64,000 bases of DNA from Squalus acanthias. Taxonomy: Eukaryota. Shown piece after piece: positions 5,379-61,359 of the stretch. Every line of letters starts with the position of its first letter. The stretch's first letter is position 1. A program made the position numbers and the translations under genes. The notes below the pieces were generated by a model, which was given only the letters and a program-made list of their open reading frames with translations, made no database searches and was not told where the DNA came from. The stretch is from positions 33,852,001 through 33,916,000 of the forward strand of contig CM059434.1 of NCBI GenBank assembly GCA_030390025.1, written 5' to 3'.

Positions 5379-5397
5379 TATATATATATATATATAT
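5379..5397. repeat. (TA)n microsatellite
   Basis: Run of tatatatata visible in the sequence. Confidence 0.8.
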
Positions 5398-7134: not shown

Positions 7135-10100
7135 TTAAAAATTAATGGAATCATCTTCAGGTATTGTGTTATCTTGGCTGATTACTTCAGGTGGTACAGA
7201 TGCACACTTTTCATGTTTTAATGCATTGTGTGCGTCCATGAACCTCTGTAAATATTTTGAAGTGTACAACCAGTGATGCTTCAAAATGTCTTCCAGCTCA
7301 TAGCTTTTGGACTGCCTTGCATTCATCTTCCTGAAACGCCGAAAAAGCTTGTTGCCTGATTCATTCCCTTCACTTGCCCACGCGCCTATAGAGCCATCTC
7401 TTTCAATGATCTCAGGGACATGAGCCAAAGTCTTATGTAGGTAGTTGGTGATCTTCCCTTCATATCTGTGCTTGAACTCTGTACGGAGCAGTTCTCCAAA
7501 TCTCTGGGAATTAAAGCTGTACTGGCAAAGAAGATCTGGGCATTCTGTAGCTGGAAATGTGGAACGCCACACTGGTTTCATAAGAATGTAAAGGTGCATT
7601 AACTCCCTGAGAATTGCTCGCCTTTCTTCAGATGGAATCAATTCACACACAGCTTCTACAGTCTCTTTGGTCATCAGCTTTCTTGCAAAGTTTCCATTCA
7701 ACCTCATGACAGGTTTCAAGTTTATCCTTTTTCTTAAGTGTTGATCGAGCATTGCATTCCACCTTTTCCTTTCCATCTTAGATGGATTGGATTTTTTGTA
7801 CAGTTCCCCAATCTCATCCTGGAAGAGTTTGTAGAATTCTGTTGCATTTCCAATGTCACAATGCAAGGCATCTATAGAGGGCTGAGTTTCAATAAATGGT
7901 TTTGCTGACACCCCCTTCACTCTATCACGTAACTCTTCAGCTGTCTCCTGATATGGATTTGAACGCCAAATTTCATAGCGTTCTAAGTTCTCTTCGTGGC
8001 TTCTTGTTATGGAATGAAGGACCAAATTCTGTGAAGCCTCACTTCGAGTGGCATCACATAATGTGCATACATAGACAGAGCCTGAGGCTTCGAGGCCTTC
8101 AACTTCACGTACAAGCTTCTCATCATACCCTGTGCCTCTAAAGACAAACTGAAATGATCTGGGCAAATCTCCAATTTCAAGGATTAAATCACTAGTCTTC
8201 ATGGCTTTTCTTTCAGTGATTAGTGGGCCCAGTATTGCTGTCAATGTTTCATGGTCAGATTCATCTGCTAGCATTAGGCAAAGTGGTTTGCAGCTCAACT
8301 CAGAATTTGGCTTTAACTCTTCGAATACTTTCACTTCTTCCTTGTTTTCATTCATCACACTTACACTCATGATTGTAAAGGAATACCTCACTGCCTTTTC
8401 TGGAACAGGTGGACCACATCCATGTTTTTCACTGACATCCCCCATTCCATCACAGGATTCCTTGATTACAACAGTAAATGGTCCACTCACAAACTCATCT
8501 ATTTTTTGACATTTTAAACCTTCTAAAATATCGTCCTCAAGATCCTTCACAGCTGAAACAAGTGCCACATCATACCTAAATCGTCTTGAAATTGTCTCCA
8601 TTGGGTAATCATCAACACATTGTGGCGAACCACTCGTACCATCTATTATTCCCACTTCAGTGTTTGTAGAGACATTTGCTAGAGGAGGCTGCCATTCGAA
8701 TGGATAATAACCTGGCAACAATGTTTTCTCTGTATTTCGGAGTGCATGCAATGGCTGGAAGATCTGCTTCCCAGTAGTTGCTTTGACTGTCCTATACATT
8801 TTATGGTACTGACTGCAACTCAGAAATGTATTAACTCTAATGGCAAGACAGACTGCTGGCTTCAATCCTGATCCTCGTCCCTGCATTACAGCCTCCAGCT
8901 CATCTGCTTGCCTGTGCTCATTTCCAGCTCTCAGTGCCAGCAAAAACAGAGTAAGACAAACTGACTTTACATCGCCACCTTCTTCTTTGTCTGCAAAAGC
9001 CTTCACCTGAAGTTTGAGATCTCGCAGGCGATGTTTTTGAGCTCTTCGGGTTAAAGACAGCAAATGTTGCCTCGGACGGCCACCCTTGTTTATTGGTGAG
9101 TAAGCATGCTTCATTCTTGTTTCTTTGTGATTTTGGGCATGGTCAGGATATTCACCTAGTCTTACCTCCGCCTCACAGTCTGTCACTGGACATTTTAGAA
9201 CTAGTAAATTGAGAACATTCATGAATGATTTAACTGGGCTTATGAACTCTGTAGGACTACAAGGAAACCTACAAACTGGACAATACTTGCCCAGGACTGC
9301 AGTACATTTGAGAATACATGTTCTGCAGAAAAGGTGCTTGCATGGTGTTTGCACAGGGTCAGCCAGTAAGTGCTCACATACCTGACATGACACTGACTGG
9401 ATAAAGTTATTGGGATAATCAAGTACAAGGAGTTTCGAACTTAGGTGGATCTTCTTGCAGTTGACAATCTTTTTAGCCAACAAAATACTTGTACTATTAA
9501 TTTGATCTTTTCTTTTAGTAACTCTTGGTCTGCTTGGAGCATCAACTGCTACTTTGGGCTTCTTTGTGACTGGTGGACTTCGTTTGAGACCTTTTCGTTT
9601 GCGAGTCCCATTTGAAAAGTTGCAAATGCTGCAAAGATTGGAATGTGGCTTCCACTGAACAATTGTGCTGATAGGAAAGAATGCATCTTCATTAGTTGTG
9701 TTGTTGATTGTCTGAATGACAATCCGCCAGCAGTTGTAGCAGAAGTGGGTGGGATATCTGGCTTCGGTATCTGTCTTGACATCTATCCTAAATGTGTTAT
9801 GAATGAGTTTTGGCCAAAAACTGTCTCCGTATCCCATTTTCCTGAGAACCTCTTGTGTGACATCATCAACAGGTCCACTAACCGGGTATTTCATGTCATA
9901 ACTGTTGGTGTTAAAGGAAGCTCCACAAATGCGACAGAGATTTTGTAATCGTAATATATGATCTTCCAAAGATTTTGTTTCCATTTGGCTAAAGTCACAG
10001 AACTTGGTTTTTGGTGGGTTGACCTCTAAAGGCATGTGTTCCAGGGACTTATCTTCCAAAGTCTTCTTGTCCAAAGGCAATGTTTCCAAAGGCATAGTTC

Positions 10101-10185
10101 CCACTGGCTTCATTTGAGAGAATGAGGATTGCCACAGTAGGCCATGAACTGGCATAACAGTCTCTGTCTCAAAAGGCTTTGCCAT
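7135..10185 (-). CDS. RAG1: V(D)J recombination-activating protein 1, 1016-aa uninterrupted ORF; true N-terminus uncertain
   Basis: N-terminal CRIC...FCYNC region, C3HC4 RING (CQVC...CKHLFCRTC...CPVC), zinc finger A (CPVTDC...H...H), nonamer-binding [14 protein letters not shown] triad ([22 protein letters not shown]), zinc ligands CTLC and YLHKTLAH, acidic tail. No introns in the CDS. Confidence 0.98.
9960..10110 (-). repeat. Degenerate 15-nt (5-aa) tandem repeat in the RAG1 N-terminus
   Basis: Peptide [30 protein letters not shown]...ETKSL-ED; TCCAAAG-like motifs recur at 15-nt spacing on the + strand. Confidence 0.6.
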
Positions 10186-10211
10186 TGAAACCGGGGCTTC
10201 CTTTTGGACAT

Positions 10212-10280
10212 TTATGAAGGCCTTGTTTCTGAATGCCTAAAATCTTCAGGTATTATTTGCAGAGGCATCTCCATTTCCAT
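10212..10280 (-). other. Short 22-aa [25 protein letters not shown] at the expected RAG1 start, out of frame with the main ORF
   Basis: ATG lies 13 nt after the acceptor ctctgttag|GTACC (exon starts at 10293). TAA at 10214-10212. The frame differs from the ORF starting at 10185. Confidence 0.75.
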
Positions 10281-10525
10281 TAGACATCGGTACCTAACAG
10301 AGATATAAAAAGTGATTATTGATTAAAACAGGATTACAGTTCAACAGCTTCAGGAGCAACACAGTCAGCTTTATATTCAGTGTTAATTTACAACTCCTAC
10401 ATTTTAATCTTTCATTATTCAGATTGCTGCAGTTCACAATGTTAGGTCTGTGCTAAAATTGGGTTTTTGATTCGGTCTGGTCTGTAAAAGACCATCAATA
10501 AAAGACCATCACACCCAATACGAGG

Positions 10526-12608: not shown

Positions 12609-12715
12609 CTTTCTCTCACAGAATGTGTTTTTCAGAGAGGGCTCCCATCTGGTCCATGTCATGAAGTAAACTCTGAAATAACAGGAACTCTCTCTACCTC
12701 TTCTAGTTTGTTCTG
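12609..12715 (-). other. RAG1: Probable RAG1 first (5'UTR) exon
   Basis: Donor GAGAAAG|GTAATG at 12609/12608, with an alternative GCT|GTAAGT at 12536/12535. It lies directly downstream of a lymphoid-type motif cluster and 2.3 kb from the acceptor at 10293. The 5' end is an estimate. Confidence 0.55.
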
Positions 12716-12790
12716 TGGCAGCTGATGTGGTGGCCTGCCTCTTAACCATGTCACTCCTAAACTAACGGTCACACTTAACCACAATCCTAA
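12716..12790 (-). promoter_or_regulatory. Putative RAG1 proximal promoter: E-box, two RUNX sites, one MYB site
   Basis: CAGCTG 12719-12724, TGTGGT 12726-12731, TAACGG 12763-12768, AACCACA 12777-12783; a second E-box CATCTG at 12646-12651. E proteins, RUNX and MYB are known RAG-locus regulators. Confidence 0.6.
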
Positions 12791-13354: not shown

Positions 13355-15109
13355 GGCTGTGATTTTGCATCCCGAGGCGGGCTAAGTGCGGCCAAGGTAG
13401 GTGGCGGACGGCGCCCCGCTCCCGATTCCATCCCGCTTTGTGAGAAGAATTTTCCATTGATTGGGCTTGTTAAGCCCGCCCTGCGCGTTTCCCAGCCAAT
13501 TGAAGGAAGCGGGTCTGATGACATCACTTGATGACGCGTCATCAGCCGGTGTCCTTAAAGGGACCATTCGCAAATTTATTTTGATAGTTGTGCTATCTAC
13601 AGCATTGAGGTGCTGCAAACACTGACAAGCACTGCACAAAGGTGCACGGCTGCACCCAGGCTCTCCCATGACACCCTCCATATGCTTATGGAGGGAGTCA
13701 CAGCATGCAGGGAGGTTCTCTTCCCTTCCCATGGGAAGAAGAGACCTCCCCAGGAGACCAACACAACCTGGTTGCACATTGCACAGAAGGGCACAAGCAG
13801 GGATGTGGTCAGGAGGACCTGGGTGCAGTGGCGCAAACCTTTCAATGATCTCAGTAAATGACGAAACATTACTGCAAAGCCACACTCAACCTCATCTGGT
13901 GTGCCTCTCATCACATCCCCATTACTCTGCCTTCCCTACCCTACTCCTGCACATCCTTACTCACATCAACTTACCTTGCACCTCCACCCATCCCTCTCTA
14001 TCTACATTATCAGTTCCCCATCTCACTAGCCACCCCTCACACTCACCCTCATCCTAGTCCAATCATACCAACTAACAACACACAAGGGTGCTTTAGCCAA
14101 TGTTCATGTAAAGTTTCTGTTAATGTGGTGTCAAACTTTGAAATCTTTATTTTCAGCACTTTGCGTTCTTGGACAGATTTGTGCTCACCTTTGGAAGTGG
14201 CTTAGTGAGTTGCAGTGAATGGTGAGACATAGCGGTACCCCCGCAATGGTGATGAGTGTGAAAGGAATGGCTTGGACATTGTAGGCATGCTTTATGGTGT
14301 TGGTGTGGGGTGGTGCCAACCTGGCGCATCATGTGGCAGCCAGGGTGTACAGCATCAAGTGCAGTAAATCTGGCCATGGTGAGGTCATCCTGGGCCTCCC
14401 AGGCAGCAATGTGGTTGGGAACTGATGCCCTGTGTCCTGTGCAGCATCAGTTGATTGCGGGGAAGTTTGGTGTTGTTGTTGGTGCTGCTGGTGCTCCTGG
14501 TGTTGGGGCTGATCATGGTGGGATTCTGAGGACCAAGGTGAAATAGTTTCAAGGGCACCGATGCTGATGGAATAGATGACAGGTGAGGTTGAGATGACAG
14601 AAGCGATCTGTCAATGGTGAGAGAGGTTGTTCCATTGAGGTGACACTGGATAGAGAGTTTGCTCCAAACACTTGCACGCTGCATAAAGCTCAATCTGTCT
14701 TCCAAATGCAGTAAGCAACAGCTTCTGACCTTGGAAAGTGAACAGCTGTGAGATGGGAGCTTTTATAGCACATTTGCAGTTGTCAAGTAAAGAAACGATA
14801 TCATGGTGAGACAACTCCCGACCTGCTTGCCTGATGTGATCCCCGAGCAGCGGGGAACCCATGGGCGACCTCGTAAAATTTAAAGGTGAGCTCAAAATAG
14901 TTTTTAAGTGTCTGTTAACAAGTTCGTAATCATCTAAATTGCCTCCCACGCCACTTGGTGTCGGGTCTGTTCAGTGATGACAGAGCTGACATCTGCGAAA
15001 CTAGCGTGGCGGCGGGTTGACAGCGGGTTCCTTGTCAGCTGTCAAAAAAAAATGTTCCCACCCGACCCGCCACCAAACATGCCCACTGACCCTCCGAAAA
15101 ATTCCCCCC
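13355..15109 (+). mobile_element. Non-autonomous Harbinger family A, copy 2 (inverted relative to copy 1)
   Basis: Colinear with the reverse complement of 478-2221. Starts GGCTGTGATTTTGC. ORF 13610-13861 carries the Myb/SANT-like APRLSHDTLHML...RRTWVQWRKPFNDL. Confidence 0.8.
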
Positions 15110-15329
15110 AAGGTGTCTGCAGACTTATTCTCGCGCCTTGGCCTGGCTTTTGCTTCATATCTGCCCATCTCTTCTTAGTCCCCTGCCTCAACAGCCTTCG
15201 CTAATAGGTTAAGTGGCCTTCTGAAGGCTTTCAGAATTTTGTGACCCTCGATTGTGATGCTATATTTGACTTACACCATGTTGCTCTCTAGATTTGCTCT
15301 TCAGAGGAAAATTGTGTGTAAACAGCCTA

Positions 15330-16910
15330 TTCCATGGGCAGACAAGTGGCAGATGGAATTTAATACAGAGAAGTGTGAGGTGATGCCTTTTGGCACAAGG
15401 AACAGGGAGAGGCAATATACCCTTAATGGCACAGTTTTAAAGAATGTGCAGGGACAGAGGGACCTGGGAATTAATGTGCATAGGTCCCTGAAGGTGGCGG
15501 GACATATTGAGAGAGTGGTTAGCAAAGCATATGGGGGGAAAAATTGGGCCGTGCCCCCTTTGGGGTGCTAACTTCACCAGGGTGCTACTTTTAGCGCCCC
15601 GAAGAAATTAGCACCCCCGCGCCCGAAATTCACTGGTAGCGCCCCAAGAGGGAGGCAGGGCGCTACTGGAAGTGCCCCGCCTCCCTCTTGGGGCGCTACC
15701 AGTAAATATCACGGCGCTATGAGCTGCGGCACGTCGCGCCACGGTACTGCAGGCCTTCCTCCCCTTATTAAAGGGGAGGGGCCTTGCGCAGCGCGACCCA
15801 GGGCCCAGCTGGGCCACCAGGGATCAGAGTGCCGGCAAAAGAGCCCGGCACTCAAGAGAAGTACCGGGCTCATGGAACGCAGCCGGCACTCTGCAGGGGG
15901 GGCTGCTCAGGAGGCCGGGGATGGCAATGGGGGCAGGTACTGGCAGGCGGCCAGCAACAAAAATGGCTGCCCGGTACCGCCCCTTTAATTTGCGCCGCCC
16001 CGGCCACAGGTAAGCCCCCCTGACCCTGTCGGATATAGTGTCCAGCAGTAAGTCAGGGGGCGCTACCGAAGATCACGGCCGGGGCGCAAGCAGGGCGCTG
16101 CGCATGGCGATGACGTCATCGCCAGCGGCGGGGCGCTAACGGTTACTGCCACCACTAACCTCCTGCTGAATTTCACGGGAGGCGTTGGTGGCGCCAGGCC
16201 CGGGCGCTAGTTGCTTTGCGCCCCGTTAGCTAACGGGAGACGCAAATCAACCGAATTTTTCCCCCATGGGATCTTGGGCTTCATAAATAGAGGTATTGAG
16301 TACAAAAGTAGAGAAGTTATGCTGAACCTTTATAAAGCACTGGTTAGGCCACAACTGGAGTATTGCATCCAGTTCTGGTCACCACACTTTAGGAAGGATG
16401 TGAAGGCCCTTGAGAGGGTGCAGAGGAGATTTACCAGAATGGTTCCCGGGGATGGGGGATCTTAGTTACAAGGACAGGTTGGAGAAGCTGGATTTGTTTT
16501 CATTAGAGCAAAGGAGGTTGAGGGGTGATTTGATAGAGGTGTACAAGACTATGACGGGTTTGGATAGGCTAGACGGGGAAAGGCTGTTCCCACTAGTTGA
16601 CGGTACAAGGACTAGGGGACACAGATTGAAGGTTTTGGGCAAGAGATACAGAGGGGATGTGAGGAAAAAACAATTTACGCAGCGAGTGGTGAGGACCTGG
16701 AACTCGCTGCCGACAGAAGTGGTGGAAGCAGAGACACTCAATGTTTTCAAGGGGAGACTGGATAGGCACTTGAGGGAAATAAACTTGCAGGGCTACGGGG
16801 ATAGAGCGGGGGAATGGGACTGACTGGATTGCTCTGCAGAGAGCCGGCACGGACTCGATGAGCCGAATGGCCTCCTTCTGTGCCGTTATGGCTCTATGAC
16901 TCTATGACTC
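15330..16910 (+). mobile_element. CR1 LINE 3' portion, interrupted by a MITE at 15534-16265
   Basis: WADKWQMEFNTEKCEV...KAYG|ILGFINRGIEYKSREVML...LEQRRLRGDLIEVYK...TRGH; ends in the ATGACTCTATGACTC tail. Confidence 0.9.
15534..16265. mobile_element. GC-rich Harbinger-type MITE (family B termini)
   Basis: TIRs GGGGGAAAAATT / AATTTTTCCCCC, TSD ATG. Removing it restores the LINE codons AAA GCA TAT GGG ATC. Many TAGCGCC/GGCGCTA motifs. Confidence 0.85.
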
Positions 16911-17414
16911 CACTTCAGTGGAGCTGAAACTCCATGGCCCTTCTGGTGTACGTCAGCAGGAGTGGGTTGGAAGAGCTGGAGATTAGGCTGGAACCTGGAT
17001 ATGCTGGGTTCCAGCCTAATGTCAGGATTTTGCAGGCCTTGTAAGGGGCAGAGCCTCCACCTTCTCCTTACAAGGTCAGTAGCAGGGCAGTGTCAGGGCT
17101 GGAGACTCTCAATGTCAGGAGTTCCCACGCCTCTGCCTATCAAAGGGTCCCAGCGCAGGATCAGCAGTAGTACATACCATGCTGTCAGACAGTGGAAGTG
17201 GGCCCCATCTGGGGCTTTAGGTCATGATCATGGCCTTGACCCCTGAAGCAAAAGGGATTTAAAAAAATATATTTTAAAGCAGCCCCTTTACAAATGCAGT
17301 TACTAAGGGCACTTTTAAGCTATTTCTGGAGGACACGCGGCACTCCCCTCCCAGAACCAGCAAGTTGCCCTGGACTTTCTGCATGTTGAGGTGGGCGGGT
17401 GCCCTAGGGTTAGA

Positions 17415-17810
17415 TTGTGAGGAGAGATTACATAAACTAGGCTTCCATTTGCTGGAATATAGAAGGTTAAGGGGTGATTTGATTGAGGTGTTTTAGGATT
17501 TTGAAAGGAATTAATAGGGTGGATAGAAAGAAACTTTATCCGCTGGTGGGAGAGTCTAGGACAAGGGGACATAACCTCAAAATCAGCGCCAGGCCATTCA
17601 GGAGAGTAGTTAGGAATCGCTTCTTCGCGCAAAGAGAGGTAGAAGTGTGGAACTCTCGCCCCAAAAATCTGAGATCGATAGATTTTTGCCAGCCAAGGGT
17701 ATAAAAAGGATATGGAGCCAAGGCAGGTGGATGGAGCTAAGATACAGATCTCATTGAAGGCGGAACAGGTTCAAGGGGATGAATGGCTGACTCCTGTTCC
17801 TATGTTCCTA
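17415..17810 (+). mobile_element. CR1 LINE 3' fragment inside an older MITE-like repeat
   Basis: LKGINRVDRKKLYPLVGESRTRGHNLKI; 3' UTR ends CCTATGTTCCT. Confidence 0.8.
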
Positions 17811-17934
17811 GATGTGCCCGTAGTGGCATAGCCATCTTTCCCTGACCCCACCAACTTTGGGCGGGATTTACTCCCTCCGTGAATTTTCAGCCCCAGTGCG
17901 TCTAAAACCCACCAATAGCCATTCTGGCAGTCAT

Positions 17935-18960
17935 TGGCCGTGAAGTTCGGCACCTTGGCACCGGTTGTTAAGGCCGGTTTTGAAAAAAAAATGACGTCCA
18001 CCTCGCTTCCGCCCACTCCCTACGCCGCCCGCGCTGCTTGTCATCTTGGTGAGGGCGATAGCATGGGCGGTACACGAATGCGCCAGCAGTATGCAGAGTA
18101 GGCCGATCGTGATGGCAGTCAGCGTGTAACGCTGATTTGACACACGACCCGCCATTTTGGACATCGCTCCATTCAAAGCCTTCTCCTAAACACGCACAGC
18201 TGAACGTGTGTTCATCTGCACGAGAGACCCCCCACCAGCACTATTCAAAAGGAACCATTCAACTTGCTGGAAAGTTGGTTATTTCTGTTGCTCTGGCTCT
18301 TGCAGAGTTTGTAGGTGTACTGGGTTGCTGGAAGGCATTTCAAAAGTTGTTAAAGTGTGCAGGGAGTGACGCTGGACATTGGGAAGCCGTTGGCTGCTAC
18401 TGGAAGGCCTGTGAGTACACCACCTGCTCCCAGTCATGGGGGTCTAGTTCCAGTCCCCCTCGCGCTGCAACAGGACAGGGAGATGGAGCAGAGGTAGCAA
18501 AGATGACAAGCTGCTGGCAGAGGGAGGAGGAGGAGGGGGAGGAGGGCTCTCAGCAGGAGGCCGAGGGGAGGAGGGCTCTCAGCAGGAGGCCTTACCCACC
18601 TAGGGTCTTCAGGGAGCACTTCTCCAACCTGCGCCTAAGCCAGGATCAGTGTATTCGGAGGCTCTGCTTCACCAAGGAGGCGGTCACAGAACTTTGCCAC
18701 CTTTTGGAACCAGACCTGCAGCCTCAGAGCAGGGCGACGACGGCGCTGCCAGTGGCCTCATGGTGACCGTGGCCCTGAATTTTTTTGTCAGCAGATTCTT
18801 CCAGGGTGGAACAGGCGACATAGCAAACATCTCACAGTTCGCCATCCATCACTGCATCCGGGAGGTCACAGAGGCAGGAGGAGCGCGCACATGGCTTTGC
18901 CAAGATATTGGGCTTCCCCATGGTGCAGGGCCCCGTCGACTGCACACACGTGGCTGCAAA
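17935..18960 (+). mobile_element. Truncated Harbinger transposon with a frameshifted HARBI1-like transposase N-terminal half
   Basis: RRPYPPRVFR...QCIRRLCFTKEAVTELCHLL...ALPV and VTVALNFF...FQGGTGDIANISQ...CIREVTEA; homologous to 28550-29500 on the minus strand. Confidence 0.75.
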
Positions 18961-20645
18961 AGGAAAGGCAAAAGCATTTGCAACCATCCTCAGAAATAAG
19001 TAGCGAGTAGATGATCCTTCTCTGCCTCCTGCTAAGGTCCCAACCGTAATAGATGCCAATCTTCAGCGAAATTGATTCACGCCACGTGACATCAAGAAAC
19101 AGCTGAGTGCCTTGGATACAGCTATGGGCCAAACGACTTCCTGGCTGTAGTCCTGAAAACTTGTGCTCCAGAACTAGCCATACCCCTAGCTGTTCCAGTA
19201 CAGTGACAACACTGGCATTTACCTGGCAATGTGGAAAATTGCCCAGGTATGTCCTTTCCACAAAAAGCAGGACAAATCCAACCCGTCTAATTTTAGTTTC
19301 ATTCCACCAGGGCCGTCTAATTACCGCTCCATCAGCCTACTCCCATTCATTATCAAAGTGAAGGAAGGAAACGCCACGAGCATTATCAAGCAGCACTTAC
19401 TCACCTATAACCAGCTCACCGATGCTCAGTTTCACTTCACCAGGGCCACTCAGCTCCAGACCTCATTAAAGCCTTTGTCCAAACATGGACACGAGAGTTG
19501 AATTCCAGAGGTGAGGTGAAAATGACTGCCCTTGACATCAAGGCAGCATTCGACCAAGTGTAGTACCAAGGAGCCCCATTAAAATTGAAGTCAATGGGGA
19601 TCAGGGGGAAAACTCTCCAGTGGCTAGAGTCTTAACTGGCTCAAAGGAAGATGCTTGTGGTTATTGGAAGCCAATCATCTCAGCCCTAGGACATTGCTGC
19701 AGGAGTTCCTCAGGGCAGCATCCTAGGCCCAATCTTCACCTGTTTCATCAATAGGTCAGAAATGAGGATGTTCGCTGATGACTGCACAGTGTTCAGCTCC
19801 ATGCACAACTCCTCAGATAATGATGCCGTCCATCCCCGCATGCAGCAAGACCTGGACAACATTCAGGCTTGGGCTGATAAGTGGCAAGTAACATTTGCAC
19901 CATATAAGTGTCAGGGAATAATCATCTCAAACAAGAAAGAGCTTAACTACATCCCCTTGACATTCAATGGCATTACCATCGATGAGTCCCCCACCATTAA
20001 TGGGTCACCATTGACCAGAAACTCAATTGGGGTAGCCACATATATGCTGTCCCTACTAGAGCAGGTCAGAGGCTGGGTATTCTGTGGAGAGTGGCTCACC
20101 TCCTAACTCCCAAAGCCTCTCCACCCACAAGGCACAAGTCAGGAGTGTGATGGAATACTCTCCATTTGCCTGGATGGGTGCAGCTGCAACAACATTCAGG
20201 AAGCTCGACACCATCTAGGACGAAGCAGTCTGCTTGATTGGCACCCCAACACAGGCTTAAATATCCATTCCCTCCATCACCAGCATAGCACGGCTTGCAG
20301 TGTGTACTAGCTACAAGATGCACAGCAACAAGTCACCAAGGCTTCTTCAGCAGCACCTCCCAAATCCATGACCTCCACCACCTAGAAGGTCAAGGGCAGC
20401 AGGTGCATGGGAGCACCATCACCTCCAAGTTCCCCTCCAAGTCACACACCATCCTGACTTGGACATATAAAAGCGTTCTTTCTTGTCACTGTGTCAAAAT
20501 CCTAGAGCTTCCTACCTAACAGCACTATGGGAGTACCTTCACCACATGGACTGCAGCAGTTCAAGAAAAAGGCGCACCATCACCTTCTCAAGGACAACTA
20601 GGGATGGGCAATAAATGCCGCCCTTGCTAGCAATGCCCACATCAG
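18960..20645 (+). mobile_element. Second LINE family (CR1/L2-like clade), decayed RT and 3' end
   Basis: ALDIKAAFD, GVPQGSILGP, MFADDCTVF, WADKWQVTFAP. 3' end GCAATAAATGCC...GCCCACATC. Related pieces at 5085-5170, 44745-45205 and 52690-53470. Confidence 0.8.
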
Positions 20646-20744
20646 AAAAAAATCTAAAATAAAACATGTCCATCACATTTCAGGTGTGTCACATTTTATA
20701 GATATATATGTAGCTATATATAGATATATAGATAGATAGGATTT

Positions 20745-22850: not shown

Positions 22851-22856
22851 TTTATT
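22851..22856 (-). terminator. Candidate ELF5 polyadenylation signal AATAAA
   Basis: TTTATT on the + strand, about 230 nt past the ELF5 stop and before TE DNA begins. Confidence 0.45.
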
Positions 22857-23082
22857 ACCAGTTTGTTGAATATTTTGGCCTTATTATGCTATATTTTCAC
22901 AAAAGAAATCCAACAAGGTGAAGGCAAAGATTTAATTTTGAATAGAAAAGTGATCACATAGCCTAGTTGAGCTGACTACTGACTGAGGATGGTGTATCGT
23001 CTGAAGATGGTGCCGGCTCATGCTAGCACAGTCCCTTATCTTCAATCAATCCAGGTTAAAGTTGACTGGTAAATGAAGACTT

Positions 23083-23167
23083 TTATCTCCAGCCATACGC
23101 TCTCCTTCCAAACTTGTACATTAACCTTCTATCCACGCGATCCAGAATCCCAGATCTGTAATAATGT
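23083..23167 (-). CDS. ELF5: ELF5 last coding exon ([27 protein letters not shown])
   Basis: Acceptor ttttcag|A, phase 2, completes the ETS domain, TAA at 23085-23083. Confidence 0.92.
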
Positions 23168-26100: not shown

Positions 26101-29100
26101 TCAGAAGGCAGTGGGACCAGATAGCCGTGGAGGTCAATGCCAGGAGTCAACCCCCGAGGACCAGGATCCAGTGCTGCAAGAAATTCAATTACCTCACATG
26201 AGTGGTCAAAGTCAGTGAATGCATCTTCAAATGCCATATCCTACCAACTGCGCCACTAGCCTCAGCTACTGCTCAATTCATCACATCCCCAGCACTCACT
26301 TATCAACAATCTCTATCAATCAGGCTTCATACCTAACATTCATATGCTTCACCTCGCCCTCACACACTTAGCACTGCTACAAGCCTCACACACACATTTC
26401 ACAGCTTGCACACACTGCCAGCTATTCAACCTTGACAGGCACATCACCTAAACTCATTGCACCACACTCACTGACACACTTCCCTCTCTCTTGCAGGACA
26501 AGGTGGTGCACAATCGGAGGCAGCAGGAGCTAACTGGTGGGGGTCAGGTGCGCCTGCATGTTCTAACCCCCATGGAGGAGACGGTGCTGGCCATTATTGG
26601 AACGGCTGTTGCTAAGGACATGGCCAATGGCGGGGCTGAAACCATTGAAGATGACAGTATCTTCATACATAATACCTAATACTCTCTCTCTCACATCCCA
26701 CTTCCCCCTCGTCCAACAATCTCTTATGATTTACAAGCTGCAGATGATGTAATAATGCCCCCCTCCCCTCACCACAACCGTACCCTTGTGCCTTTTTCCT
26801 TTCAGATACCCAAGAACAACAACCTGCCCAGGCAGTGGTGGAAGAGCAAGAAGACAGTGATGATGAAGACAAACTGTCACTCGATTTCACACTCGCAGCC
26901 ACCCGCTCAGGTATTCACACTGCGCGTAATTTAGAGGACAGTATAGAGGCAGAGCGGCAGTGGTGGCACACGGAAGACAGGCACTTAGGGGGATGCACAG
27001 GGTGATTAGTTTACATTTGTATACAATATGGCATGCTTTGATTTGTAAATTTGGTTTGGAATGTTTATTTTGTGCTGGCTGTTATTTTTGCATTGTGGCC
27101 AAGCGGACGCTGTGATGGTCAGTGATAGAGGGAAGGTAAGGTGTGAGACTGTTGGTGAATGGGGAATTGGGATTGGGGTTACTAGTATCGCACTCGGGTG
27201 AGTTCTTCACGCACACCCCGGGCNNNNNNNNNNNNNNNNNNNNNNNNNNNNNNNNNNNNNNNNNNNNNNNNNNNNNNNNNNNNNNNNNNNNNNNNNNNNN
27301 NNNNNNNNNNNNNNNNNNNNNNNNNNNNNNNNNNNNNNNNNNNNNNNNNNNNNNNNNNNNNNNNNNNNNNNNNNNNNNNNNNNNNNNNNNNNNNNNNNNN
27401 NNNNNNNNNNNNNNNNNNNNNNNNNNNNNNNNNNNNNNNNNNNNNNNNNNNNNNNNNNNNNNNNNNNNNNNNNNNNNNNNNNNNNNNNNNNNNNNNNNNN
27501 NNNNNNNNNNNNNNNNNNNNNNNNNNNNNNNNNNNNNNNNNNNNNNNNNNNNNNNNNNNNNNNNNNNNNNNNNNNNNNNNNNNNNNNNATAGCTGGTGGC
27601 AAGAGCTGGGCCCTCATGATGGCGAGGTTGCGCAGCGTGCCGCAGACCACTACGAATCTTGACACCCGCTCTGCCGAGTACTGCAGGGCTCCTCCAGAGC
27701 GGTCCAGACAGCACAAGCGTTGTTTCAGCACGCCAATGGTCTGCTTTATCACATTGCGTGTGGCAGCATGGCTTTCATTGTATGCATGCTGTGCACGTGT
27801 GCATGGGTTGTGCAGTGGAGTCATGAGCCGTGTCATCGGCACGAAGCCCTTGTCGCCCAGTAGACATCCTTTGGTTTGTCTTGGTGGCTCAAATGTATAT
27901 GGTACAGCGGACTGCCACAGAATAAAAGCATTATGACTGCTGCCAAGATACATAGAAACATAGAACATAGAAACATAGAAAAATAGGAGCAGGAGTAGGC
28001 CATTCGGCCCTTCGAGCCTGCTCCACCATTCGATATGATCATGGCTGATCCTCTATCTCAATACCATATTCCCGCTCTCTCCCCATACCCCTTGATGCCT
28101 TTTGCATCTAGAAATCTATCTATCTCCTTCTTAATTATATTCAGTGACTTGGCTGCCACAGCCTTCTGTGGTAGAGAATTCCACAGGTTCACCACCCTCT
28201 GAGTGAAGAAATTTCTCCTCATCTCAGTCCTAAATGTCCTACCCTGTATCCTGAGACTGTGACCCCTCGTTCTAGACCCCCCAGCCAGGGGAAACATCCT
28301 CCCTGCAGCCAGTCTGTCTAGCCCTGTCAGAATTTTATACGTTTCAATGAGATCCCTTCTCATTCTTCTAAACTCTAGTGAATACAGGCCTAGTCGACCC
28401 AATCTCTCCTGTGATATAATACTGGGCATTGACCTGCATGATATGGTGCCTATATTTGCACACCAGCTGGAAGTTGAAGGAGTGGAATACCTTTCGGTTG
28501 CGGTACATCTCAGAGTTGACATGTGGTGCCGGCAAAGCGATGTGCATGCAGTCAATGGCACCCTGCACCATGGGTAGGCCTGCAATCCTAGCAAAGGCGC
28601 ATGCCCGCTCTACCTGCTGGTCTCTGGCAAGAGAGAATGAAGTGTAGTCGGCTCTCTTTCAATAGAGAGCCTCAGTGGCCTCCCTTACGCAACAGTGGAT
28701 GGCAAATTGCGAGGTGTTGCAAATACCTCCAGCTCCAGCCCGGAAGGAGCCAGACATATAAAAGTTCAGTGACACGGTCACCTTCACAGCCATTGGCAAT
28801 GCGGTCCTTGCCCTGCTCTGAGGTTGCAGTTGTGGCTGCAGCAGGTGGCAGATTTCAGTGAGGCCGTCCTTACTCAAGTGTAGACGTCTTGCACATTGTT
28901 CCTCGCTGAGGTTCAGGTAGGAGAACTGTTACCTGAACACCCTGGGAGGATATGACCTCCTGCTGAGAGCCCTTCTCCCCCTCCTCCTTCTTCTAGCAGC
29001 TTGACCTGCCCTGCGTGGCCTCTGTTCATTCTCCAGCCATGCTGTATTCCAAGGGGAATTCCTACTAGTGCACCCATGTCTGGCAGCAAGTGGTTTGTGC

Positions 29101-32100: not shown

Positions 32101-35100
32101 TTTGGGGTGAAATCTTGAGGTACACCAGAGATGACAGGGCCAGGAGGAGAAACCACTGCTGGAAATGTGTTGACTGCTTTAGGACAAGTAGGAATGGCAC
32201 CATGCAAGGGCAGTCCCATGAAGGTAAATCATTGAGAAGAGTGACATGATCAACTATGTGAAAGATCACGAATAAGTGAAGGAGAACAAAGAGGGATAAT
32301 GCATTGCAGTCACAAAGAGTATCATTGGTGACTTTGGTGAGGGTTGTATCAGTGCTCTGGATGGGGAGGAATGCCACGGAAGTGATTCCAATAGAGCTGT
32401 GAGAGAGGTGAACACCAAATTGGGAGACAATGACACATTCAAGGACTTTGGAGAGGAAGGAGATGTTGGAAATGTGATAGTAATTGGAGTGGACATAGGA
32501 ATTGAGGGTGGGAGTTCTGGGGAGGAAGCTGATGACAACAGGTTTGAAGGAGAGGAGGAAGATGCTTGAGCAACAAAAAAAATAGAATTCCAATGTCATG
32601 AGAATAGGAAAGGTAATTGGGTAGCCAAAGGTTGGGTGGGAAGAGGATCGAGGGAATAGGAGGCGAGTCACAGAAGAGATGATCTTGGAGAAGCCGGATA
32701 GGGAGAAGGAAGAAAAAGTATAGGATAATACAGTGCTTTGGGGATGGATGAGTGCGGGTTTGAGGTTGGGTTACACATAGGGGTGAGGAGAGAAGGAGGT
32801 GACAGCAGAAACAGTTGTGTAGATGATCTCAATTTTGGAGGCAAGGCAGCCCATGAGTTCCTCACACTTAGTATTTGTGGTACGAGTGGAAGGACCAGGG
32901 GAGTAGGGTCAGAGAAGGCCGCTTGCCTTGAGAAAACGAATCTGAGATTGTCCGTACCCTCCAGGGTGATCCTGGAATGCTAACTCACCAACTTCTGTTT
33001 TTGCAGAACTATGGCATCCTCGGCTTCTTTTGTAAACTTGTGACTTTTGCCCAGAGCTTGAAGTGCCTTAAAATGGAATATACAGATTAGTGAAACATTT
33101 ATTGCGTTTAAAAAAAATTATTTTTACACTTTTTATTTTTTCTTCTTTTATGCAATTCCTCCCATTCCAAGTAGCTTTCACTGGCCTCCCCTGAGCCACA
33201 GCTTTGGACAAGGAGAAAGAGAGTGCCTGACCTCATCAATGGCATTCCATTGACCAACCAACATGAGGCGTGCTTGCTTTCTGTCCTCAAGTACTGCAGC
33301 CAGGCACTTAGCTTCTCCCCAGGTGAGAATACCACCAAATAATGACTGATTCCATCCTTAATTAGTTTACTCATATATTTTAAAAAGCTTACAACATATA
33401 GGTCACAAATTACTTCTTAGATATTTCCCCTGCTCTTGCTACAATGCAGTACACTTAATGTCTCATCCAATGGGCTGGATTTTCAATGACCCATGGAGTC
33501 GGGTTTGGAGGCGTGTGGGGGGGTTAAAGTTGCAGATTCAGGGGTCCCGACCCCATCCCGACTCCATTCCGCCTCCACGCAATTTTGACAAAATCAGTCA
33601 CGGGGTTCCCGACTCCGTCCCGCCTCCAAGAGGTGGGAGAGGCCATTAAAGCCCTTAACAAGCCCTAAATTGGCTCTGTAATGCCATTTTGAAACGTTTT
33701 AGCTAGTTTAACCCTTTTCCGACGTGAAGTACGCCGATGTGAAACACGCCAGTGAAACCTGGCGGGAGCACAAGTGGATAGCTGACTATCAGCTGCAGGT
33801 CCACTATTACAACGGAGATGTGATGAAGGTAGTAGTAGTATTGTGATGAAGGTGTGTGTCTGTCTCTGTCTCTGTCTCTGTCTCTCCTCTCACACCAAAA
33901 GCCAGGCAGTCAGTCTCTGACCTGCAATGATGACATCATCAGAGGCGACTTTAACATGCTGGAACTCAATTACCCAATTAAGTGAAAATTGCATCATTCA
34001 TCCAGCCCAATATGTCTGGCATTTACATTTCTAACATTTACATTTCTTGGGATATTTTATGGAACATTTTTCCATTTGAACATTCAAGCTTAAATTTTCC
34101 AATCAGCACTGCCTGTTTTACTGGTATAAATTGGGCGGGCAGGATTGGAAAATGGGCCAAAGCCTCATTCTGCCTGAGCCCCACTCACTTTAGTGCCCAT
34201 TCAATTTCCCACCAACATTTCCGGTGGCAAGGGAAATGCCTACTTCAGGCAGCAGCTTCATTTGAATAATAATTATGGGGCATGTGTGTCCTGTACCCTA
34301 CTTCTCAACATTCTGTCAGGCAGGACATTGATTATCCCCATATTGAGCTGGGTTTCCAGGGTTTCTAGGTAATAGTAAATATATGGAAGTTCATTTACTC
34401 TCATCTGTGACGTGCTTTGGGACATCCTGAAGACTTGAAGGAAGTTATATACATGCAAGTTTTTTTTAGCCTGCCAATCATCCCAGCTGAAGGACAGCAC
34501 CGCATTGGAATATCAGCCTCGATTAGCATTTAACAAGAACAACTTGCATTTATATAGGATAGCAAAATACTGCGGATGCTGGAAATCTGAAATAACAACA
34601 GAAAACGCTGGAAAAACTCAGCAGGCCAGGCAGCATCCGTGGAGAGAGAAAGAGAGTTAACGTTTCAGGTCGATGACCTTTCGTCAGAACCTGACGAAAG
34701 GTCATCGACCTGAAACGTTAACTCTCTTTCTCTCTCCACGGATGCTGCCTGGCCTGCTGAGTTTTTCCAGCGTTTTCTGTTGTTATTTTGCATTTATATA
34801 GCACCTGCATCCCAAAACATTTCACAGAAGCATAAGGAAAATATATGGATGCCAAGCCAAAGAGGGAGTAATTAAAATGGGTGACCAAAAGCTTGGTCAA
34901 AGAGGTGTGCTTTAAGGAGGTTTTTAAAGAAGGAGAGGGAGATGGAGGGGTTCAGGGAGGAGATTCCAGGAACTAGGCAGGTGAAGGCACTTAGTTTCTC
35001 CCCAGGTGAGTTTACCACCAAATAATATGACTGATTCCATCCTGAATTAGTTTGCTCATATGTTTACACAAGAGGACAGTCAGGAATGGAGAGTGTGGGA

Positions 35101-38100
35101 GAGAGAGGCTGTAGGCTGGAGGAAGTTACAGAGGCAGGGAGAGACATGGCCATGTAGTGATTTAATCATGAGAATAAGAATTTTTAATTTGAGGCGTTGA
35201 GTAACCAAAAGCCAATGTAGGTCAGCGAGGGCAAGAGTGATGGGCCAGCAGGACGTGGTGCAAGATAGGATGCTGGCGGCAGAGTTTTGGATAAGTTGAG
35301 CTTTATGGAGGCGGGAAGATGGTAGGCCAGCCAGAACGCTGAGTAATCGAGTCTGGAGGTGAGAAAGGCAGGTGAAGATTTAGCAGCGAATGTGCTGAGG
35401 TAGGGGTAGCTTTTCAGCTCTGATACGTGGCTCAAATCAACAACCTTCCGACCTAGAGGTGGGAGCCAAATAATGGTGCAAAGTTCAGGGAGATATGAAA
35501 AAAGGGAAGAGAGGAATTACAAAATAATTCACCAAACAAAGAAAACAATTAGTTAAGAATTATATATAGAGATCACAACTGTGCAATCAGTGCTAAACAG
35601 ACCATGCTTTACTTACTTTCATCAATATGATGCTCTTTGTCCACAGAATTACTCACTTGAGACACCTCTGTTAAAGGAAGTAATGCAACAAATGTAATAT
35701 ATGTTTTCTAATTACTTTTTTGTGTGAATTTTATGCTCATCGAGGTTAGGGATGTTAGTGCTGGAGATTGGAATAGTTTCTATTTTGAGCATCCAGTGTT
35801 AGCTTCAAGCATTCCCACATCAGATCTAGTATAGTTAGATGAGAGTAAAGCTCTCTCTGCTTGGCTCCAACCATGTGCCTCAGCCGCAACTTCACAACAG
35901 AAACCAAACCGCACCAGTATTCGTTTACCATTCCCCACAACGGCTGTCCTGCAGTGCTCAGACTGTAATTGGCAATTTAATGCGAATTAATGGAAAATTG
36001 GGGCACTTTGGATTACAACCCAGGTGCCAGAGGTAATAGACCAGTGTTTTAATTAAAGCTTTAGGTAGTAAATGTCTTTATAGCTCCAGTATCCCGTAAT
36101 TAAATACTTTTGATCAATCACAAATTACTAATGGTAACATTGTAACCTTTTTTGTTGATAGTTTAATCATATATTTTTATTTAAATTGCAGAATGGACAA
36201 ACTGGACACATTCCCGCACTCAGCAATACGACAACACATTTGCATACAATTGACAGTGAAAGTTTAGTACTTTCAACAAAGTAATTAATCTGTCAGTTTG
36301 AAGTGTTCTCATGAGAATTTGATCTGAGTCATGATACAATGATGCGAGGACCAGAGGAATGCATCTTGCACAAAAAGCCATTGTCTGCAGATTACATGGC
36401 ATTGACAACAAGTCCTGAAAATATCTTTGCCCTTGCTGCTGAAGTGGCAAACACAAGGCTTGAAGAGTGACTCCCATTTGTACTGCAATAGGCACAGAAA
36501 TCAGTAAACGTTACCAAGAAGCAGTGACCTAAAAAAAAATTGGCAGCATGGTACAGAAATTTTTTTAATGTGAAATTTGAATGTCAGATGTTATGGGGAA
36601 CCTTCTGTTGTATCGATGCGAGCAGAAGCATTGTGTATATCTCCCGCTTTGCCTGATATATGTTGTGGTTTTCCTGTGGTAACCTTCCAGGTGACTGGGT
36701 CAAACAGCGAAGAATCGTTTTTCTCCAAGTTTCTCCCCAACCTGCTAAAATATTGCTGCTAAAAGATTGCTGGCGTACAAGGGCACAGCAATTTTTCAGT
36801 GCTTCAACTTGGTGGCCTTTCTTCAAGTGCGACTCTACATGGTGAGGCTCAGCTGACTGCTCAACCATGCTGGGGCGGGGATGGGGCATCACAGCTGAGC
36901 TCACTTCTGTCCTCACTTGGCATCCACACAAGCACACTTCCCAGCAGGGCCACTGTATAGTGATCGGAATCAGGAACCTGAGCTTGTTTTTCTCCTGACG
37001 TGCCAGGGATCATTAAGGTCAATTGTAGTTCCCCACCATCACCGTGGTTATGATCAGCTAATGTAGCATAAACCAAGGATTGAAGCTCTGACATTCTGGT
37101 CTGCATAGCTCAGTATCACACCCGGCAGTGTACTTGCCCACTGAGTTACTGAACGAGCCAAGAGAGCAAGCTTTTTCCCATTTCTTTTGTCATGGCTGTC
37201 AATTTTGTTTTTTTACTAACTGTCGAACTTCATGTAAATCAAAGGCGAAAGCTCTAACCTCGGCCTTTTATTTGGTGCAGAATATTGTGAAGGATCTCTC
37301 CATAATTCCCAGCTGCGCTGAAAAACTGCTGTTGAGTCATGTTGCAAAGCTGACTGCCATTAATATTGAACTCAGCGAAGGAAATGAAGTTTGCATCTAG
37401 TTTATACTGATCACAGCAGAACTGTAGCCATTCCCAAACCTGCCAATTACTCCACTGTTCAGGAACACTTGAGGTCCAGGATACATCAGAAACTGAAACA
37501 AATCACAGCTTTATCTTAACACATATCAGTTAAATGCAAATATACCAAAATCCTACTTAGAGGCATTCTTAACCATCATCATTTACACAGAGTACCAAAA
37601 ACACTGTTTTACTTGCCCCTCCCCCCACTGGTAACTACAAAAATCATGAAATAATGGCCCAGAAATTGGAGTTCGATGGTTGCCGCGGGGGTAAGGATCC
37701 CCCGCGATATCGCACTCCGCGCCTACCTTTATGGTTTTGGCCCACACGAACTTCAGTTCCTGGGCCTCTCCCTGGTGCCGGCGCGCAGTGTGTGCGTGTC
37801 CCAGAGGCGCAGTTAGTTCGATGCGACCTCTGGGATCACGTGGGTCAGTTAGAGCCAATGGCAGCACACCATCTTTCATTCATAGTTTTGACAGGAAGAG
37901 CTGTCAAAACTATGAATACAACAAGCCCCCAAAAGAACAGCTAAACCTCAATTAAATTTTATAAAAAAAGCCATCACATTAATAAAATAACTATAGTTAA
38001 ATAAACTAACCACTTTAAACAAAAATTAACATTTTTGAAAAAATTTAAATTCTTTTTAAAAGTTATAAAAATAAACTTACCTTGCTTTAAAGTCTCTAAA

Positions 38101-38764
38101 AAAGATAAACCTGTTGAAAAAAATTTAAAATAATACTTAATTAACTACTGACCTTGTTAAAAGGGGGTCTTACGCCTGCTTTCTTTATGTGTAAAATCTT
38201 CAACACTTACCTGCGCGTTCAAACCTGAAAAAAAAACTAAGTGCGCTGCGTGCGCACAACCTGTAGCGCGCACGTGGTTCACTTAGGAACCGCCCCCTTC
38301 GCAATACCCGAAGTGCCGGTTTCCCGCGCATGCGCAGTGCATGCAGGAAACCGGCACTTCGGGACCTAATACACGAGAGTACACAGTGCGTACTCTCCCG
38401 TATTAGGTCTAATTTTCGGGCCAATATATATAATTTTGTCCCAATCTGCTACTTAGTTATTGTTTAGGCTTAGGGTAAAAATTAAAATTAGATAGATGAA
38501 GTAGAATTTTGGAGAGCTTGTCTTCTCCTACAGGTTAATTGGAATCTACTTTCCCTCCAGATAATCCTCTTTTACACATTTAGGTAACATCTGTAAAAGG
38601 TTGGCCTGACAATCGTCTAAACATTAAAAAAGGACTAAATTGATCTTACTTCCATGGTCCTCTTGGTAGGAGAATTCCAAATGTCCATAAAGAAATGGTG
38701 AGGCCAAAGGGCTGAAAAGAGTTAGGTCTGTTGAATAGCTGTAGTAACCAAAATAGTCTAACAT
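23083..38764 (-). CDS. ELF5: ETS transcription factor ELF5 (ESE-2), six coding exons, 252 aa: 38764-38650, 37492-37259, 35667-35617, 33066-32989, 24216-24021, 23167-23083
   Basis: All junctions are GT-AG and phase-consistent (115+234+51+78+196+85 = 759 nt). Starts MLD. PNT domain [24 protein letters not shown] domain [20 protein letters not shown]...[28 protein letters not shown]...YKFG. Both match ELF5 rather than EHF or ELF3. Confidence 0.93.
24021..24216 (-). CDS. ELF5: ELF5 ETS-domain exon
   Basis: ORF track 24017-24214; acceptor ctccctaag|, donor AG|gtaat. Confidence 0.95.
24559..25453 (+). mobile_element. Internal-deletion derivative related to the Harbinger at 58826-62244 (family B)
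   Basis: TIRs GGGGTAGAAATT / AATTTTTACCCC. 24650-24930 resembles 58860-59140 and 25040-25453 resembles 61830-62244; both genes are lost. Confidence 0.8.
27224..27588. other. Assembly gap (365 N)
   Basis: Run of N. Confidence 1.
27951..28419 (-). mobile_element. 5'-truncated CR1 inserted into the Harbinger transposase
   Basis: [22 protein letters not shown]...; (CATAGAAA)n tail at 27951. Very similar to the copy at 56151-57297. Splits ...VNAQY from LGSSH. Confidence 0.88.
29682..30277. mobile_element. CpG-rich Harbinger-type MITE
   Basis: TIR-like GGGGCAAGAAATT / AATTTTTTCCCCC. Shares ATGACGTCATCGCC and TAGCGCCCC motifs with 15534-16265. Confidence 0.6.
30770..32980 (-). mobile_element. Old L2-clade LINE remnants
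   Basis: ORF 31910-32671 has [24 protein letters not shown] and VDH; nearby GVPQ and HADDTQ. Many frameshifts. Confidence 0.7.
32989..33066 (-). CDS. ELF5: ELF5 linker exon (78 nt, [25 protein letters not shown])
   Basis: ttttaag| and |gtgagt, phase 1-1, in frame; retains the CHS motif seen before the ELF5 ETS domain. Confidence 0.75.
34558..34788. mobile_element. Penelope-like pseudo-LTR-derived hairpin insertion
   Basis: Perfect 98-bp inverted repeat (34590-34687 / 34691-34788) with a 3-nt loop. Flanking 14-bp direct repeat TTGCATTTATATAG (34544-34557, 34788-34801). Same sequence family as the ends of the element at 50230-51720. Confidence 0.8.
34655..34691 (-). ncRNA. Candidate minimal type I hammerhead ribozyme motif (Penelope-associated)
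   Basis: Minus strand reads GGUU-CUGACGA-A-AGGUC-AUC-GACCU-GAAAC-GUU-AACU: both core boxes, a 5-bp stem II, a palindromic helix III and a short stem I. Confidence 0.5.
35617..35667 (-). CDS. ELF5: ELF5 small exon (51 nt, [16 protein letters not shown])
   Basis: ctttaacag| and |gtaagt, phase 1-1, open in frame between the PNT and linker exons. Confidence 0.7.
37259..37492 (-). CDS. ELF5: ELF5 Pointed (SAM_PNT) domain exon (234 nt)
   Basis: [77 protein letters not shown]; tttcag| and |gttag. Missed by the ORF track. Confidence 0.93.
37656..38422. mobile_element. Harbinger-type MITE (family C) in an ELF5 intron
   Basis: TIRs GGCCCAGAAATT / AATTTTCGGGCC, TSD AAT. Close inverted copy at 53991-54756. 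Confidence 0.85.
38650..38764 (-). CDS. ELF5: ELF5 first coding exon ([38 protein letters not shown])
   Basis: Acceptor ttttacag|CATC-ATG TTA GAC; donor A|gtaaga, phase 1, fits the PNT exon. Confidence 0.8.

Positions 38765-61328: not shown

Positions 61329-61359
<31 letters not shown>

Follow-up and report, generated by a model that had tools for sequence, protein, structure and literature searches.

The locus of the recombination gene RAG1 is usually drawn with TRAF6 beside it, and one may ask which gene holds that place in a shark. We examined a 64,000-bp stretch of the Squalus acanthias genome (contig CM059434.1, positions 33,852,001 to 33,916,000; hereafter the window), in which the first gene upstream of RAG1 is ELF5, carried on the same strand.

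ELF5 and RAG1 in the window

An earlier note, made from the letters of the window, had described a complete ELF5 ending at 23083 on the strand of RAG1, and this description holds. The gene runs from 38764 to 23083 on the minus strand in six exons, which join to 759 nt and an intact 252-aa product free of internal stops, and its introns are all GT-AG (5/5 donors GT, 5/5 acceptors AG).

38650..38764, minus strand: ELF5 first coding exon, with the ATG at 38764
37259..37492, minus strand: ELF5 exon 2, PNT domain
35617..35667, minus strand: ELF5 exon 3, which aligns with Heptranchias and Pristiophorus ELF5
32989..33066, minus strand: ELF5 exon 4
27224..27588, no strand: assembly gap of 365 bases within ELF5 intron 4
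24021..24216, minus strand: ELF5 exon 5, ETS domain
23083..23167, minus strand: ELF5 exon 6, end of the ETS domain, with the stop at 23083
22851..22936, minus strand: candidate ELF5 polyadenylation signals at 22936 and 22856, predicted by motif scan

The product carries a PNT (SAM) domain (PF02198, E=6e-24) followed by an ETS domain (PF00178, E=1e-21) in Pfam, as vertebrate ELF5 (ESE-2) likewise does. Compared with solved structures, the ETS exon matches human ELF5 best (117.7 bits; ELF3 scores 90.5 and EHF 89.6). Nearly all of the named proteins among the best 120 of 179 matches are called ELF5, and the two called EHF come from sharks and fall in with ELF5. Identity is 86% to Heptranchias XP_067849623.1, 65% to chimaera ELF5, and 56% to both mouse and coelacanth ELF5.

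A tree of 26 rows and 221 columns separates the window protein, together with ELF5, from EHF/ELF3 (81.6/86); its inner support is weak, and a long-branched clade of ELF5-like paralogues stands beside the window protein (71/55). Since these paralogues match mainly in the ETS part, at 70%, identity over the full length favors orthology. No exon of a second ESE gene (EHF) was found within the 64-kb window. The ELF5 model of Pristiophorus has an additional N-terminal part, which matches repeats of the window in the wrong order and was dismissed as mispredicted. In RefSeq, the ELF5 orthologues of sharks, rays, and the recent chimaera records are labeled "ETS homologous factor," a naming that may have masked the adjacency.

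The RAG1 side and the interval between the two genes contain the following features.

7135..10236, minus strand: main RAG1 frame, in which coding begins near 10218, with RING, zinc finger, and core
10218..10280, minus strand: first ~21 codons of RAG1, with the ATG at 10280, in another frame than the main ORF (tblastn with the N-termini of shark and ray RAG1, frame -3)
10293..10295, minus strand: AG splice acceptor before the RAG1 coding exon, read from the sequence and presumably used
12609..12790, minus strand: putative promoter and non-coding first exon of RAG1, proposed from motif matches without a chance control
13377..14812, plus strand: Myb/SANT-bearing transposon fragment, copy 1 (Pfam PF13873)
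14813..21149, no strand: interspersed repeats, among them a reverse-transcriptase fragment (19690-20103), with no host gene found (Pfam, depth)
21150..22548, plus strand: Myb/SANT-bearing transposon fragment, copy 2, oriented as copy 1 (Pfam)

The main RAG1 frame scores 1254.9 bits in Pfam, has the core, RING, zinc finger, and importin-binding domains, and is 93.7% identical to Pristiophorus and 92.3% to Heptranchias RAG1. Its ATG at 10280 does not share the frame of the long ORF, owing to a one-base shift near 10220, which the earlier note had overlooked, and this assembly contains no single open frame from the conserved start codon. Two short-read contigs of organism A, X1 and X5, are each longer by one base somewhere over the 10218-10280 region, and the shift is probably an assembly error, that is, a deletion. 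No RAG2-sized frame was found in window positions 1-7135, and RAG2 would be situated outside the window. Terminal repeats resembling the RSS, looked for around RAG1 with at most three mismatches, gave 0 and 1 matches against 0.89 and 0.75 expected by chance; such repeats are not expected to persist over so great an age.

From the ELF5 stop to the RAG1 ATG is 12,803 bp. The earlier note had put ELF5 about 10 kb from the RAG1 promoter; the promoter end of that measure is a putative one, set by matches to motifs at about 12.6-12.8 kb, namely 12724 and 12651 (E-box-like), 12783 and 12731 (RUNX-like), and 12609 (donor-like). The interval is free of N, the sole N run of the window being the gap in ELF5 intron 4. 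Of 81 stop-to-stop frames of at least 58 aa in 10300-23080, three match Pfam at E<=0.01, two of them being Myb/SANT fragments (presumably Harbinger-type) and one a reverse-transcriptase fragment; none of the 81 matches a TRAF, RING, or MATH family, and Rfam gave no match across the window. The claim that neither gene nor gap separates ELF5 from RAG1 is thus upheld for frames of this size and for Rfam families, only transposon fragments being present.

Read evidence came from the short-read contigs of 4 of 24 runs. Depth over 11.4-13.3 kb is single-copy in all four, whereas the repeats at 14813-21149 reach a summed depth between 6,000 and 3 million, where single-copy DNA has about 8-50. No short-read contig of the four runs spans the repeat-filled 13.4-22.7 kb. 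Joints skipping 13.8-21.7 kb, most of which are at repeat-level depth, were discounted as further copies of the element. Organism A has single-copy pieces of the interval as well, as do two related organisms.

Gene order in other species

Accession order can serve as a proxy for neighborhood, though it gives no coordinate and runs in batches. In Heptranchias, ELF5 (XP_067849623.1) and RAG1 (XP_067849624.1) have consecutive RefSeq numbers on one 76,075,720-bp chromosome; because of the batches, such a pair could hide intervening genes. Callorhinchus ELF5 is XP_007885831.1, with three identical EukProt records. The legend of a preprint labels the RAG2 protein XP_007885835 only as "shark" (10.1101/100735), and we infer from the number range and PMC12730594 that it is chimaera RAG2. 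The chimaera ELF5 and RAG2 would then be 4 accessions apart; the step from RAG1 to RAG2 in the chimaera is 212 numbers, and that from ELF5 to RAG1 in Pristis, where both are on one chromosome, is 268.

Altogether, ELF5 lies within five numbers of a RAG gene in two of the three comparable chondrichthyans versus none of five bony vertebrates, a count that leaves aside Latimeria (different annotation releases) and Pristiophorus (records without accessions). The ELF5-RAG1 gap is 243 in Polyodon, 1325 in Microcaecilia, 2840 in Protopterus, and 12,675 in Sceloporus, and large gaps of this kind prove nothing alone, since the numbering runs in batches. ELF5 and RAG1 share a chromosome in the sharks that could be checked, the ray, the coelacanth, the paddlefish, the caecilian, and the lizards, but not in the lungfish Protopterus, where they are on different chromosome pieces; in Scyliorhinus torazame, EHF and RAG1 lie on one 266,286,206-bp chromosome.

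The ELF5-RAG1 order is therefore likely also that of the sevengill shark and the chimaera, judging by accession order. The suggestion of the earlier note that the arrangement is common to chondrichthyans receives indirect support from the Heptranchias and Callorhinchus numbers. No report of the adjacency was found in the titles and abstract beginnings of the open-licence papers that a literature search listed. Nor did the portions consulted of the supplements to PMC8040251, PMC8302630, PMC5568229, PMC6312339, PMC7269912, and PMC10927551 contain the order of this region in ray-finned fishes, lamprey, or amphioxus.

Whether the 3' neighborhood of ELF5 (CAT, ABTB2) is old is uncertain. In the part of the PMC8040251 supplement that covers it, ABTB2 and LRRC4C are 2.6 Mb apart in gar, 312 Mb in reedfish, 5.0 Mb in Xenopus, and 12.3 Mb in zebra finch, distances that are far out of proportion in reedfish and zebra finch. 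As they vary in this way, the mammalian order on the CAT/ABTB2 side need not be ancestral.

A probable single inversion and its alternatives

In human, ELF5 (minus) is followed by EHF, some ten further genes, TRAF6 (minus), and RAG1 (plus). An end-to-end flip of the block from ELF5 to TRAF6 would bring the tail of ELF5 to the head of RAG1, would need a single breakpoint in the RAG1 5' flank, and would leave the RAG1-RAG2-IFTAP unit untouched; one such inversion would yield exactly the order and strand observed. A rearrangement broken in that flank had been proposed in the earlier note, and ELF5 occupying the flank supports it. We consider it probable that a single ELF5-to-TRAF6 inversion separates cartilaginous fishes from tetrapods and accounts for ELF5 upstream of RAG1 here and, likely, in the sevengill shark and chimaera. 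Inversions of this kind are ordinary, and the genes involved are already known.

As to direction, we lean modestly toward the TRAF6 order being the older, since with RAG taken out of it TRAF6 and IFTAP would stand head to head, the arrangement expected of a bidirectional host promoter. The same inversion run in reverse, a sub-case differing in direction only, is a possible but less favored reading: the shark order would be ancestral for jawed vertebrates, the RAG transposon would have inserted with the 3' end of ELF5 on one side and the 5' end of IFTAP on the other, and TRAF6-RAG1 would stem from a later inversion in the bony lineage, one that provided RAG1 with a new regulatory flank upstream. 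The earlier note had likewise suggested that an order common to chondrichthyans could mark the ancestral landing site, a step for or against which the present evidence does not speak. Chondrichthyan genomes probably rearrange slowly, and the ELF5-RAG1 order, being likely common to holocephalans and squalomorph sharks, would predate their split. Removing RAG from the shark order, however, leaves ELF5 and IFTAP in tandem, and the tetrapod arrangement would seem the better fit to a bidirectional NWC promoter as presented in PMC3439442.

A single flip might also be too simple. The RAG-IFTAP unit or ELF5/EHF may have moved alone, or inversions may be nested, and one could point to the single breakpoint seen and to the differing ABTB2 and LRRC4C positions among bony vertebrates; yet in human ELF5 stands at the far end of the block, its strand is that predicted by one flip, and EHF is still on the RAG1 chromosome in Scyliorhinus, which makes such an origin unlikely. 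We find it rather more doubtful that the change is real but limited to squalomorphs or to this species, with accession closeness elsewhere due to chance or batching. The 268 numbers in Pristis would suit this, as would a toy uniform model in which chance gives 0.02-0.08 for falling within 4 numbers and 0.04-0.10 for consecutive ones, but ELF5, the neighbor found here, is within five numbers of a RAG gene in two independent annotations. Least probable is an assembly misjoin within the repeats at 13.4-22.7 kb, for all that the interval is nearly all repeat, is flanked by two 1.4-kb copies in the same orientation, is crossed by no short-read contig, and sits in an assembly with base errors, as the frameshift in RAG1 shows, and with an N gap lying 4 kb off. 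The two flanking copies (13377-14812 and 21150-22548) are just 84% identical and have no exact 61-mer in common, and a misjoin would leave the accession closeness in two other genomes unexplained.

Known RAG loci and the landing site

If all sharks and chimaeras have ELF5 in this place, one flank of RAG was swapped near the root of the jawed vertebrates, and the DNA beyond roughly 13 kb upstream of RAG1 would be non-homologous between sharks and mammals, which bears on searches for conserved RAG enhancers. Passages of one review describe enhancer conservation as not visible in fishes and amphibians (PMC8199221). The landing-site question would also become two-way, turning on whether IFTAP in lamprey, hagfish, or amphioxus adjoins TRAF6 or an ELF3/5-like gene.

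The mammalian TRAF6-RAG1-RAG2-IFTAP (NWC/C11orf74) locus likewise has a single RAG1 coding exon with RING, zinc finger, and core, but there TRAF6 stands head to head with RAG1 (the human order), whereas in the shark ELF5 stands tail to head. In a locus of the mammalian type, RAG2 also converges on RAG1, and the first exon of IFTAP lies within an intron of RAG2. In the lizard Phrynocephalus, ELF5 and RAG1 are separated, with locus tags 563 and 579 (16 apart), whereas in the shark they are adjacent. We take fugu to have an ACC-synthase-like gene upstream of RAG1; the teleost 5' neighbor would then also be other than TRAF6, but a different gene, and one placed after the teleost genome duplication, and if so the RAG1 5' flank has changed more than once. 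Work by Sniezewski in 2018 reportedly concerns the NWC/IFTAP promoter as a site of RAG integration. That bidirectional promoter, on the RAG2 side, is the integration site proposed in the portion of Laszkiewicz 2012 (PMC3439442) that treats it; it belongs to the flank outside our window, whereas ELF5 marks the opposite flank of the empty site.

ELF5 and RAG1 in the window

The earlier note proposed that a complete ELF5 lies immediately upstream of RAG1 on the same strand, where human and mouse have TRAF6, with neither another gene nor an assembly gap between them. The features concerned are:

7135-10236, minus strand: RAG1 long frame, with Pfam RAG1, importin-binding, RING and zinc-finger matches
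Upstream of RAG1, minus strand: ELF5, six exons with GT-AG introns, joining to an intact 252-aa PNT-plus-ETS protein
27224-27588: N run, the only one in the window, inside ELF5 intron 4

These points stand. The interval from the ELF5 stop (23083) to the RAG1 ATG (10280) measures 12,803 bp, and the N run falls outside it. In a scan of frames of at least 58 aa (10300-23080), 3 of 81 matched Pfam profiles, all of transposon type (two Myb/SANT, one reverse transcriptase), and no other gene was seen among them. Read depth is mostly single-copy up to about 13.3 kb, with repeats breaking in at 10.5-11.4 kb, and is single-copy again from 22.9 kb; every bin between 13.3 and 22.9 kb is at repeat level, and there is therefore little room for a gene. 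The distance of about 10 kb from ELF5 to the RAG1 promoter agrees with a cluster of promoter-like motif matches and a donor-like site at 12.6-12.8 kb, which may mark a putative start.

The nearest solved structure to the ETS exon is human ELF5 (117.7 bits; ELF3 scores 90.5 and EHF 89.6), and the protein is 86% identical to that of Heptranchias, 84% to Pristiophorus, 65% to chimaera ELF5, and 56% each to mouse and coelacanth ELF5. In a 26-row tree, it falls on the ELF5 side, away from EHF and ELF3, with weak inner support. A second, long-branched ELF5-like clade attaches beside it at 71/55, a position that we read as long-branch attraction because its proteins match mainly in the ETS part, at about 70%. 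This fast-evolving ETS gene is present in Mustelus, Hemiscyllium, Callorhinchus (as "ETS translocation variant 1") and the frog Rhinoderma, lies in Hemiscyllium and Callorhinchus on a contig other than that of RAG1 or ELF5, and is possibly a paralogue lost in amniotes. EHF was not found within 25 kb above the ELF5 ATG in the window.

The window RAG1 pairs with Pristiophorus in a 25-row tree, with support (86/81) that is not strong; the sequence is thus probably that of a squalomorph shark. Its conserved first 21 codons are in a different frame from the remainder, through a one-base shift at 10215-10225. Contigs from two runs (X1 and X5) of organism A, whose read contigs are near-identical to the window, each show a one-base excess as the sole gap across this region; the frameshift is therefore probably an assembly error, one that would truncate automatic gene models. 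No RAG2-sized frame was found between the RAG1 stop and the near end of the window (1-7135), and the RAG1-RAG2 spacer therefore exceeds 7.1 kb.

Contiguity and repeats

Four of the 24 listed runs were used, all as short-read contigs, and no contig crossed the interval among the 32 pieces listed of about 681,000. Low-depth pieces among those listed came from organism A (10000-10942, 11063-13455, 15053-15362, 16870-17442, 17781-18071, 18896-19467 and 22675-24300) and from two related organisms (16896-17493, 17747-18499 and 18921-19239); such pieces prove the existence of the sequences but not their linkage. The interval lies between two 1.4-kb repeats in the same orientation, which, however, are 84% identical and share no exact 61-mer. 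At 11-13.4 kb, about 1% of the sequence differs between organism A and the window, and at places all four runs contradict the window; the window therefore carries a divergent haplotype, comes from a sister species or contains consensus errors.

Several repeats were recorded across the window. A Myb/SANT-bearing element occurs in three copies (79-84% identical), and the copy below RAG1 (558-2224) has the opposite orientation to those above it (13377-14812 and 21150-22548). A near-complete transposable element at 58840-62244, which we take to be Harbinger-like, holds a Myb/SANT-like frame (58958-59764) and a transposase-like frame (61230-61784), and two segments of ELF5 intron 4 (24628-24894 and 25052-25453) resemble its ends at 85-87%. 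A 778-bp element occurs twice in inverted orientation (37656-38433 in ELF5 intron 1, and 53980-54756; 94% identity), and an unclassified repeat has two copies, 70% identical, at 45648-46197, followed by a TCTCA microsatellite (46398-46436), and at 63377-63925.

Gene order in other genomes

Proximity was judged by accession order, a proxy for position rather than coordinates. In Heptranchias perlo, the ELF5 orthologue (XP_067849623.1) and RAG1 (XP_067849624.1) are consecutive on one chromosome. Callorhinchus milii ELF5 is XP_007885831.1 (three EukProt records are identical). A preprint legend gives XP_007885835 as shark RAG2 and XP_007886047 as shark RAG1 (10.1101/100735), the latter termed chimera RAG1 in PMC12730594; chimaera SOX6 is XP_007885710 (PMC7217701), so accession numbers follow the scaffold. 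By these numbers, there is room for at most three models between chimaera ELF5 and RAG2. In human, the same stretch holds twelve genes plus RAG1. Pristis ELF5 and RAG1 are 268 numbers apart on a single chromosome. ELF5 thus lies within 5 numbers of a RAG gene in 2 of 3 comparable chondrichthyans versus 0 of 5 bony vertebrates, the chance of each close pair being 0.02-0.10 in a toy model.

Separations in bony vertebrates
Phrynocephalus: 16 locus tags
Polyodon: 243
Microcaecilia: 1325
Protopterus: 2840, on different pieces
Sceloporus: 12,675

Numbering goes in batches, a known weakness of the proxy, since chimaera RAG1 and RAG2 are themselves 212 numbers apart; a large gap therefore says nothing, and genes numbered in another batch may lie within a close pair. 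Positive signs of separation come only from the Phrynocephalus tags (assumed positional) and the lungfish split. Lungfish RAG1 and ELF5 lie on separate pieces of chromosome (2.000 and 1.974 Gb), a hint of a further rearrangement or of a split within the block. Scyliorhinus EHF is on the same chromosome as RAG1.

A published account of ELF5 beside RAG1 was not found in the open-licence literature; subscription papers may mention the pairing. Among passages of PMC8355894, PMC7786948, PMC4939155 and PMC8199221, those of the three papers searched for TRAF6 do not mention it, and PMC11590757 gives a gene list without order. Public annotations probably show the order, with shark ELF5 labelled "ETS homologous factor". 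In sharks, sawfish and chimaera alike, RefSeq gives this name (EHF) to the ELF5 orthologue, while the true Scyliorhinus EHF is labelled "EHF-like".

A probable inversion and its direction

We regard the adjacency as a genuine variant of the RAG neighbourhood, probably general among chondrichthyans, and infer that it arose by an ordinary inversion, of which one breakpoint is visible. We take the human order to be ELF5 (minus) opening a block that TRAF6 (minus) closes, followed by RAG1 (plus). One end-to-end inversion of this block would bring the ELF5 tail to the RAG1 head, as in the window, without disturbing RAG1-RAG2-IFTAP. Upstream of ELF5, the genes from EHF to TRAF6 would then run in reverse, and TRAF6 would lie beside the former flank of the ELF5 3' end, which is CAT if mammals keep an old pairing. 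The age of that pairing is uncertain because in reedfish and zebra finch a long distance separates ABTB2 from LRRC4C (PMC8040251 supplement).

The direction of the inversion is a clearly testable question; the gene order of ray-finned fishes, cyclostomes and amphioxus was not found in the published supplementary data searched. It bears on the earlier suggestion that the ELF5 side may mark the landing site of the RAG transposon. No RSS-like repeats were found above chance level. A published proposal places RAG integration on the RAG2 side, at the NWC/IFTAP promoter, which is bidirectional and lies in a CpG island; in sea urchin, NWC is not linked to RAG (both from PMC3439442). Removing RAG from the tetrapod order would leave TRAF6 and IFTAP head to head, a natural bidirectional pair, whereas removing it from the shark order would leave ELF5 and IFTAP in tandem; for this reason, we lean slightly toward the TRAF6 order as the older of the two.
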